A stretch of 64,000 bases of DNA from Haliotis cracherodii (Eukaryota), in NCBI RefSeq assembly GCF_022045235.1, contig NW_027266275.1, forward strand, positions 29,698,001 through 29,762,000. The letters run 5' to 3'. Position numbers and translations under genes: made by a program. The notes beneath the pieces are model-generated. The model ran no database searches. It saw nothing but the letters and a program-made list of their open reading frames with translations, and had not been told where the DNA came from. Positions 52,740-55,700 of the stretch are shown here, piece by piece; the stretch's first letter is position 1, and the number at the start of each line of letters is the position of its first letter.

Positions 52740-55700
52740 TTAGGAGTCGAGTCGCGCCAATTCACTGGTGTATATTCCAATACTCTCCATGTCGTACAGT
52801 ACAAAGTAGATTTGCTTCAGAGAGCTCGTCATCACTGTCATGAAGTAGTTGCTGATGGCGCGGAGAATGATCTGAGCTGCCGTCTGCTTCGGGAACCCAG
52901 CGCTAGGATACAAGAATGAGGACTGTGAGGGGAAAAAGTTTGTCTGTGGTTTGTGAGTGCAGTTGTATTTGCATTGTACATTCATGTGAATCACAGTGAA
53001 AAGCTACACCAGACATCTTACTTAAAGTGCCATGAACTCTTGGAAAACTGGCAACTCTAATGATGGATGTTAACTTTGACAGTCCCTATGTTTATTTGTT
53101 CATAGTTTAATGCCTCACTCAACAATTTTCAAGCTAAATGATGATGGTCTATAAACAATCAAGTCTGAACCAGACAATCTAGTGATTGACATCATGAGAA
53201 TTCATGTACACAACTGGGATAAGATGACATGCACCAACCAAGTCAGTGAGCCTGACCACCAGATCCCATTAGTCGCCTCTTTACGACAAGCATGAGTTGT
53301 CTAACAATGACATATATTGGAAGCATTTACCACTTTGGTAAAACCTACAAACATTAGAATGGTGCTGACAAACCAAGGATCATAATCTGGGCAAATCTGT
53401 GATTCAAACCCATGATTACTGGATCCTGGTATGGCTAAGGGAAGCAACTCCGACAGAATTGCAGTCTCAGATGACTGGGTCACCCTCATACCCCTACAAA
53501 ATAGCAATGATGAATTCGAGTGTTGAATACATTTGCTTAGGGAAATGAAATCATGAGATGTAAAAGTGCAGAATGTTAAACAGTGGAGATGTAATAAAAT
53601 TTAAAAAAAACCAGAAATCAAAAACTGTTCAGCTGTGATCAGTCCAAGCATGTCCTAAGGCATCCAAAGTGGCATCAAAATGTTTCGATTTGTCTTGGAA
53701 AGTTTTTGGAGAGGCCATCAACATGGGAAGGTATTCAGAGAGGCAATCTAATTCAGAATGGGTTGATTACTGCCGTCATCAGAGAATGTGTCATAAGAAT
53801 TGGAAGGCTTTCGAACGGGGGCCATCAACATGAGAAGGTGTTGACCAATGAGAGACCAAGATCAGAAGGGCTTCTGAACCAAGTGTTCGTTGCAGTCGTC
53901 AGCAGATGAAAGGTCATCACAGTGGGAGGGTGTTCTGAGAGGCAACCACTAACAGAATAGTTTCAGGGAGGTCATCATCATCAAAGGGGTTACAGAGAGG
54001 TCATGAACAGCAGGTTCGTTTGTTGTTTAATGCCACACTCAGCAATATTCCTTGCTGGATCTGACAATCCACTGATGGACATCAGAAAGGATTGAGAGGT
54101 CATCAACACCAGAAGGGGTGGGACAGGTGTTAGAGCATGTTGGGTGCCAACCTATCAGATGTTGTTCAAACAGGTCATCAACATCAGAAAGGATTGAGGG
54201 GTCATCAACACCAGAAGGGGTGGGGCAAGTGGAAGTGCATGTTGGGTGCCAACCTATCAGATGTTGTTCAAACAGGTCATTAACATCAGAAAAGATTGAG
54301 AGGTCATCAACACCAGAAGGGGTGGGGCAAGTGGAAGTGCATGTTGGGTGCCAACCTATCAGATGTTGTTCAAACAGGTCATTAACATCAGAAAGGATTT
54401 AGAGGTCATCAACACCAGAAGGGGTGGGGCAAGTGGAAGTGCATGTTGGGTGCCAACCTATCAGATGTTGTTCAAACAGGTCATCAACATCAGAAAGGAT
54501 TTAGAGGTCATCAACACCAGAAAGGGTGGGGAAGGTGTTAGTGCATGTTAAGAACCAACCAAACAGTGTTAACAGTCTATGCTACAGGTATAGGTAACTG
54601 ATGTGCCTTACCGCCCACTTCCAACAGAGGGGAAGGCCAGACTTTTCAGGTTTTTCTCATCAGCCAAAGTTAGACAGTTCTTGACTGCTTTTTCCAACAA
54701 TTGCTGTGGGTTATCCATTTTCCATGTGGGGCCGTTACAATGGATAACATACTTTGCTGGGAAGTGGAAGCCTTGGCTGATCATAGCTGAACAAACAAAC
54801 AACCAAAGTCAATCCATGATAACAACACCACACAGACAGCAGCATCAAGTTCTGCAGCCAACACTGACATTCTCCTGAGACGCAGAAAGCAATGATGACA
54901 ATTTCATTTCTGTCTGCAGGTTGCAGAACTAGATGCATTACCTGTGCTCGGTATCTCTAGGTTCATGTACAGACAAATGACAACAGTGGCAAGACAAGCA
55001 TCTAGATATGCAATTAATAGGCCTTCCTCTTATACATGTTTTTTGCAAAAAGAAATCTCACAAGAAAGATATGGATAGCAACTCCTCAAATGCCCGAAAA
55101 AACTTGGTTCACAATGAGTTGAAGAAAATGTCCTCTGAATGCTATCACATTAGAAAAAGACTTATTTTAATAAATTCTATGAAAATAAATATGATTTGAA
55201 GACAATGATATATTCCATGCCTTGATCATCATCCACTGTTGTCAGCCTGTAACATGACCAGCTGAAGCCACTCACTTCCCACTCCCAATGGAAGGTATAG
55301 CTAAAGACTTGAGGTTTTTCTCATCAGCGAGAGTTAGAATGTTCTTGACAGCTTTCTCTAGCTGCTGTTGTGAGTTGGATGAACCCCAAGACGGACTGTT
55401 CACATGGACAACATACTTGGCTGGGAAATTACGACCTGGGCACATTGCCGCTGAAATGTATAATGTTATTAAGCTGACAATGGTACTAAATTCACAATTC
55501 ATGCTGAGTACCACATGATGTTAATTGAGGTAAGACATTAATCAGCTCCAGAATGGGTCAGAAGGTCAGAATGTCAATGGGTCAATGTATCAATGTAATG
55601 ACTAGGTAGTCATGTCGTTTGCGATATTAAATGTGAACAACAGATAGTAAAGTCCCACTTTAACAGCATTATCTCAGTGCTTATGCTATTGCAACTCTAA

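Follow-up and report, generated by a model that had tools for sequence, protein, structure and literature searches.

The window analysed here, a stretch of 64,000 nucleotides of Haliotis cracherodii DNA, carries on its minus strand a macroH2A gene with two twin exons, 7a and 7b, of 175 nt each inside the macrodomain (Table 1). Joining exons 1 to 6 to either 7a or 7b, and then to exon 8, gives proteins of 390 residues that are letter-for-letter P0003 and P0049, the RefSeq H. cracherodii macro-H2A.1-like isoforms X1 and X2. P0003 is composed, from N to C-terminal, of an H2A fold, a basic linker and a macrodomain (Pfam PF00125, PF16211 and PF01661, with PDB matches to both parts). Since the spliced forms equal database proteins, the 7a/7b pair is confirmed as genuine and not a product of chance.

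Table 1 Features of the macroH2A gene; positions are those of the window.
Feature	Positions	Strand	Basis
Coding exon 1: start codon, H2A fold	62225..62396	(-)	exon chain equals P0003 and P0049 exactly
Exon 2: H2A fold	60349..60455	(-)	exon chain match
Exon 3: end of H2A fold and basic linker	58669..58947	(-)	exon chain match
Exon 4: linker and start of macrodomain	58200..58295	(-)	exon chain match
Exon 5, constant: D203, G224 and E225 equivalents; spans the vertebrate 1.1/1.2 variable stretch	57526..57616	(-)	exon chain; alignment; excerpts of PMC8301376 (residues 198-229)
Exon 6, constant: donor joined to 7a or 7b	56507..56596	(-)	exon chain; contig loose ends
Exon 7a, alternative, type A (V273, S275, I294, N315): 175 nt, phase 1 to 2	55276..55450	(-)	
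7a-7b intron, 489 nt: predicted long helices, candidate splicing control element	54787..55275	(-)	fold statistics; putative function
Exon 7b, alternative, type B (C273, G275, C294, R315): 175 nt, phase 1 to 2	54612..54786	(-)	
Exon 8, coding part: completes split codon; A316, F348 and D352 equivalents; stop	52740..52902	(-)	

The twins have 115 of their 175 bases in common, encode equal residues in 39 of 57 whole codons, and both use canonical splice sites (CAG acceptors, GT donors). An earlier note, made from the DNA letters, had listed motif differences between them, and all of these are present in the two exon sequences. The split codon that it described is also there: the last two letters are AA in 7a and CG in 7b, and the C that opens exon 8 completes the codon as Asn or Arg, respectively. 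The upstream Asp and the GGEVG motif, which it had assigned to both isoforms, are indeed encoded in constant exon 5 (57616-57526). A pseudo-exon or an assembly artefact is ruled out, as both frames are open, 17 codons differ silently, and both copies are spliced and conserved. Two paralogous genes are likewise ruled out for the abalone genome, where a search returned four matches: 7a and 7b, the one exon pair found, and two other macrodomain exons at 42-45% identity that resemble other macrodomain proteins. GP, in the earlier note the general macrodomain consensus at the first motif, was seen in both of these other exons. Elsewhere in the genome lie two long single-exon macrodomains with GP and GIF/GIY motifs (L003:1366-2061 and L004:1153-1806), which by resemblance may be PARP14-like.

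With exon 6 ending in phase 1 and twins of 175 nt, only one copy at a time keeps the frame. Inclusion of both breaks it, giving a product of 353 residues and a stop 123 nt upstream of the last joint, and skipping of both breaks it as well, with a product of 299 residues; double-inclusion transcripts would be removed by nonsense-mediated decay. Contigs from four of 21 listed runs, none of which is entered as RNA on record but which are presumed to be RNA and were chosen for containing the region, were aligned to 54555-55800, the evidence for a joint being loose ends of 27-30 letters at exact exon borders, below the 31-letter bridge threshold. Such ends connect both 7a and 7b to exon 8 in three of the four runs (X1, X2 and X6; three studies, two organisms), where the loose end is the first 30 bases of exon 8 and matches 52873-52902. 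Exon 6 is connected to 7b in two runs (X1 and X6) and to 7a in one (X1), and the exon 6 ends fit the true exon better than the array copies downstream of it; the contigs of run X5 have no loose-end joints. A 7a-7b joint was absent from the contigs of the four runs, which drop rare forms and come from a region that could not reveal double skipping. 7a and 7b are neighbouring, similar exons that agree in length and phase, have canonical splice sites and are each joined to common flanking exons.

Contigs retaining the 7a-7b intron occur in all four runs, which were selected for containing it. Together with the early stop after double inclusion, they would suit a scheme in which the two proteins are equivalent and the pair is kept for splicing-linked dose control, for example through decay of double-inclusion or intron-retaining transcripts. 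However, the type-specific residues are kept apart across phyla, as described below, which equal function does not predict, and we regard this scheme as very unlikely.

The intron itself has a more stable predicted fold than its shuffled versions, of which one in 100 reached as low a value (z -2.69), and among 11 windows taken from the introns of this gene it scores lowest (z -2.46, followed by -1.82). In the predicted fold, two stems, one of them a 24-pair helix, would shorten the distance from the 7a donor to a candidate branch point to about 35 nt or less; excerpts of PMC5740500 set the steric limit for exclusive splicing at <50 nt. Plain steric hindrance without folding was rejected, the candidate branch points being 431-467 nt from the 7a donor and thus too distant. 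One of 13 listed substitutions falls in the outer helices, where the pair is kept, and five of the 13 disrupt the inner ones. The predicted helices may hinder the 7a-7b joint, and as a splicing control element they may be followed as a lead only. Pairing of the docking-site/selector kind between this intron and the downstream one is unsupported, the best duplex (-28.3 kcal/mol) being equalled by 9 of 30 shuffles, and the 25 inverted repeats listed are a count without shuffle control. The 300 nt of intron before 7b (54787-55086) show fewer differences from other runs than the remainder does (in one contig, no more than 3 of the 12 changes; p 0.012) and may hold splicing signals.

Two tandem arrays lie close to the twins. 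A 52-bp array of 13.9 copies (55807-56527) starts inside exon 6, in the 3' end of the exon, and consists of repeats of that end; several copies have a GT donor-like site. Its copy at 56317 has an Ile codon where the end of exon 6 (56507-56525) has Thr; Ile is also found at this position in H. rufescens proteins, and run X6 has the same base at the exon end. Sequence exchange between array and exon is possible. A 102-bp array (54079-54549; 4.6 copies, 95% matches) starts about 60 nt past the 7b donor.

The pair is not restricted to abalone. In a sample of 190 proteins drawn from protein searches and from 30 clusters, with same-species pairs formed by entry names, 18 isoform pairs were found: 15 from molluscs (nine gastropods, five bivalves and one chiton), one from Lingula and two from nemerteans. 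In every pair the differences are confined to the twin exon and the last 53 residues are identical. The two exon types are thus conserved in three phyla (molluscs, brachiopod and nemerteans), and a fourth, the annelids, is added by a gene model. Five gene models contain both copies in tandem, and in each the A-like one precedes the other. They come from Tegillarca, Magallana, Biomphalaria pfeifferi, the annelid Paralvinella and, with an incomplete second copy, the centipede Strigamia. The earlier note had proposed the pair as an isoform switch; the pair is real, and its conservation across phyla had gone unnoticed.

An exon tree was built from 58 segments and 58 columns, including 17 A and 17 B copies, one near-identical Haliotis pair being omitted. 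A single branch splits the copies by type and not by species (95/89, 100% of 200 bootstrap trees). As types were assigned by residue 315, that column is partly circular and the tree was rerun without it: minus columns 273, 275, 294, 312 and 315 the split persists (90/86, 94% bootstrap), and the nearest row is of the same type for all 34 copies. Separate recent duplications are disfavoured by this split, also with the diagnostic columns removed. Since the copies group by type, the simplest reading of the tree is a single duplication before molluscs, brachiopods, nemerteans and annelids separated. Insect, horseshoe crab, sea spider, amphioxus and vertebrate exons are placed among B, cnidarian and hemichordate exons on the A side, and those of arachnids and Priapulus in between. 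In two tests on 58 columns, with constraints chosen after seeing the tree, a lophotrochozoan-only clade of copies is weakly rejected (AU p 0.031) and a protostome-only clade is not rejected (AU p 0.28), which suggests, without demonstrating it, an origin of the pair at or before the protostome ancestor.

Some protein entries depart from this pattern. Two Octopus isoforms (P0121 and P0183) are both of type B, and three limpet entries (P0025, P0068 and P0031) carry an A-like exon alone, with His as residue 315; in either group one copy may have been lost, as seen from protein entries only. The Montipora isoforms, also known as protein entries only, differ by a single residue at the exon border. 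In arachnid macroH2A (P0027, P0023, P0033 and P0136), residue 275 is Ile or Met and G312, G224 or G317 is often absent, so that ligand binding may be altered or lost.

Residues are numbered as in the 369-residue vertebrate macroH2A1.1 (P0171), where D203, G224 and G314 stand at their published numbers; the abalone residue is obtained by adding 22. The 7a model matches 1YD9, 1ZR3, 3IID and 7NY6 with TM 0.93-0.97 by target length, hence a macroH2A-type macrodomain fold, the value for 3IID, the macroH2A1.1-ADP-ribose complex, being 0.93 by target length with an rmsd of 1.8. The 7a and 7b models contain the same macrodomain elements, with pLDDT mostly 80-96 in the macrodomain blocks. Ligand contacts were assigned by homology only. 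The stretch encoded by 7a/7b corresponds to residues 258-315, and the two abalone proteins differ at 19 positions, four of which (273, 275, 311 and 315) lie at or beside predicted ligand contacts and 15 away from them. The earlier claim that the exons differ at ADP-ribose pocket positions is therefore supported in part, for 315 in the phosphate loop beside G314, but not for most of the 19, which are predicted to be core or surface residues. Its KNI/KNC (294) and AIPSI/AFPSV (308) differences sit in helix 3 and strand 6, and are probably core sites in the models; the Ile/Val change at 311 within the latter motif is not type-specific in the 18 pairs; and GSSNS/KMDNP belongs to the variable 279-283 loop, probably at the surface.

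Across the 18 pairs, residue 315, the one used for typing, is Arg in all type B copies, against Asn in 16 and Thr in two copies of type A. Residue 294 is Cys in 17 type B copies vs Ile or Val in 18 of type A (different in 18 pairs), and residue 273 is Cys in 17 vs Val in 18 (different in 17 pairs). At 275, Gly in 16 type B copies faces Ser in 16 of type A, with 14 pairs differing; the exceptions are scallop type A, with Gly, and two clam type B copies, with Ser. Residue 312 is Gly in 18 type B copies vs Ser in 11 of type A and differs in 11 pairs; 279 differs in all 18 and 308 in 13. The ligand-binding frame is shared: no change is seen at D203, G223, G224, E225, F348 or D352 in any of the 18 species that have pairs, nor at G314 in the 36 rows of the pair alignment. 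D203, F348 and D352 belong to the ADP-ribose-binding positions of the family. By alignment, the D203, G224, G314, F348 and D352 set of a reader macrodomain is present in both abalone forms. Excerpts of PMC5770377 describe the roles of G224 and G314 in ligand binding by macroH2A1.1, in which G314E abolishes PAR binding.

Residues 310-319 form the beta6-alpha4 loop in both models, termed the phosphate-binding loop in excerpts of 10.64898/2026.08.12.744356, and 315 adjoins G314 in it. Positions 314-316 (G314-R315-N316) align with G-I-F/Y of the two other abalone macrodomain exons. By their motif, Val95 and Gly97 of SARS-CoV-2 Mac1 presumably match macroH2A 273 and 275. According to excerpts of PMC7467174, the Mac1 diphosphate is held by the main-chain amides of Ser128, Gly130, Ile131 and Phe132 and by water-mediated contacts to Val95 and Gly97. 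In this solved relative the pocket contacts are mostly main-chain or water-mediated. By analogy, 275 would probably make a water-mediated backbone contact and act indirectly, as 273 probably does; on the aligned sequences, 315 is the sole difference for which a side-chain influence on the pocket can be argued well.

We lean slightly towards a reading in which both forms would likely bind ADP-ribose and exon choice would tune the affinity through lid residue 315, aided by repacking of the core. The retention of D203, G224, E225 and G314 in both forms makes tuning likelier than loss. Residue 315 would take the place of the GIF-loop Ile of other macrodomains, a residue that spans the two loops above the diphosphate. 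Arg315 of 7b would give a basic lid like that of vertebrate 1.1, facing the invariant E225, with which it might form a bridge, and Asn315 of 7a a more open one, while the core beneath the loops would be packed differently owing to the substitutions at 273, 294 and 308. Exon choice would in this way set, by tissue or stage, the capture of PAR or auto-modified PARP1 by chromatin-bound macroH2A. Against the lid stands the mostly main-chain nature of the Mac1 contacts, by which a side-chain change would be tolerated (excerpts of PMC7467174). Which form binds tighter is a matter of about even odds. In excerpts of PMC10802294, the Mac1 loop Ile is said to span the phosphates, and replacing it by Ala strengthened ADP-ribose binding while leaving hydrolysis unchanged; as removal of a bulky lid raised binding there, either form may be the tighter binder. 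Nor can the direction be transferred from Mac1, since the effect of one loop substitution was of opposite sign in two viruses, as excerpts of the cited Mac1 study report.

Both forms could also bind ADP-ribose alike, the differences serving fold stability, redox sensitivity or a partner surface (the 279-286 loop and helix 3). Residues 273 and 294 separate the types as well as 315 does (17 and 18 of the 18 pairs) and 279 differs in all 18; the three sit in strand 5, helix 3 and a loop, respectively; type B has two extra cysteines, in line with a redox role; and for every macroH2A the macrodomain has partners whose binding does not depend on ADP-ribose (excerpts of PMC8232725). But the only column without overlap between types is 315, in the phosphate loop, and 312 and 275 also track type, so that we hold equal binding to be rather unlikely.

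More improbable is an on/off switch like vertebrate 1.1/1.2, with one form, probably 7a, non-binding. In all 18 species type A does depart from the vertebrate binder at 315, in 11 of them it also shows Ser in place of G312, and its residue 315 is less fixed (Asn, Thr, Ser or His in the wider tally, in which 128 of 161 proteins were scored). However, D203, G224, E225, G314, F348 and D352 are kept, and the loops gain no proline or acidic residue, unlike 1.2 or macroH2A2, a non-binder in which prolines alter the phosphate loop (excerpts of PMC8232725). Furthermore, Ser at the 312 position is found in other macrodomains (Mac1 Ser128), and the single exons of cnidarians are A-like. The earlier note had favoured tuning over loss of the vertebrate 1.2 kind, and the constancy of the pocket residues in both forms makes such a loss unlikely.

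One form might lastly be a latent ADP-ribosyl hydrolase, exon choice toggling reader and eraser. According to excerpts of 10.64898/2026.08.12.744356, one change in a loop made an inert macrodomain act on RNA, but active macrodomains have an aromatic residue in the beta6-alpha4 loop. This MacroD-type mark is absent at 316 in all 18 species (Ala in 15, Gly in 2, Asn in 1), and both abalone forms have Ala316, from constant exon 8, which leaves a hydrolase scarcely credible. Tuning through residue 315 stays our preferred reading.

A description of the pair was not found in the excerpts covered of the literature on macroH2A evolution, splicing and invertebrates; Guberovic 2021, Rivera-Casas 2016, Kozlowski 2018, a 2023 review of macroH2A1 splice isoforms and supplements lie outside that scope and might mention it. 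The excerpts covered of PMC12210499, PMC12153100, PMC5550673, PMC8015243, PMC6189284 and PMC8232725 contain none. Within these, the main text of the mollusc histone survey (PMC12210499) has neither 'splicing' nor 'isoform', and the annelid survey (PMC12153100) kept one transcript per gene. Because of the exon pair, the gene-level expression of macroH2A reported for mollusc and annelid larvae and nervous tissue in these excerpts sums two proteins. The pair is real, old and apparently undescribed, and it belongs to a familiar type of splice switch; the function given here is a proposal. It offers a natural two-allele test of the residues that set ADP-ribose affinity and PARP1 inhibition.

Among known systems, the abalone forms are the entries named 'core histone macro-H2A.1-like isoform X1/X2' in RefSeq/UniProt for molluscs, Lingula and nemerteans, names that are automatic. 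The pair resembles mutually exclusive homologous exons of the Dscam and myosin heavy chain type in its equal lengths, phases and similarity and in its position within a folded domain; it differs from those clusters in having only two copies, and docking-site/selector pairing was not found. An exon length not divisible by three, as in abalone, is reported for 60% of human mutually exclusive clusters in excerpts of PMC5740500. Loop 2 of coronavirus Mac1 offers another parallel, as its GIF Ile is homologous to 315 by motif alignment and acts as a diphosphate lid tuning binding (excerpts of PMC10802294), although Mac1 is a hydrolase with Ile-Phe where macroH2A has Arg or Asn followed by Ala or Asn, and its effect came from mutation and not from splicing.

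The closest relative is vertebrate macroH2A1.1/1.2 (MACROH2A1, H2AFY), of the same family and fold, where one of two macrodomain exons is also chosen and the variable part touches the ADP-ribose site. However, the vertebrate exon covers residues 198-229 (adenine site, G224; excerpts of PMC8301376), a stretch that in the alignment is constant exon 5 of abalone, whereas the abalone pair covers 258-315 on the opposite wall of the pocket; and vertebrate 1.2 loses binding, whereas both abalone forms keep D203 and G224, the latter being retained in 18 of 18 species. Excerpts of PMC12551714 describe the vertebrate exon as arising with vertebrates and regard control by splicing of the ligand binding of macroH2A as something that vertebrates added. 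An older, independent pair on the opposite wall, kept across phyla, would show repeated selection for two macroH2A forms. We put forward only tentatively, as a somewhat doubtful scenario, that a pocket splice switch evolved twice in animals: an older one, from the protostome ancestor or before, which would swap the pyrophosphate lid and set PARP1/NAD control by cell type, and a later one in vertebrates on the adenine side, with arachnids and insects each keeping one copy and the vertebrate exon maybe a surviving type B. Judged from the aligned exons, the 7a/7b pair is older than the vertebrate 1.1/1.2 exon, and a different switch.
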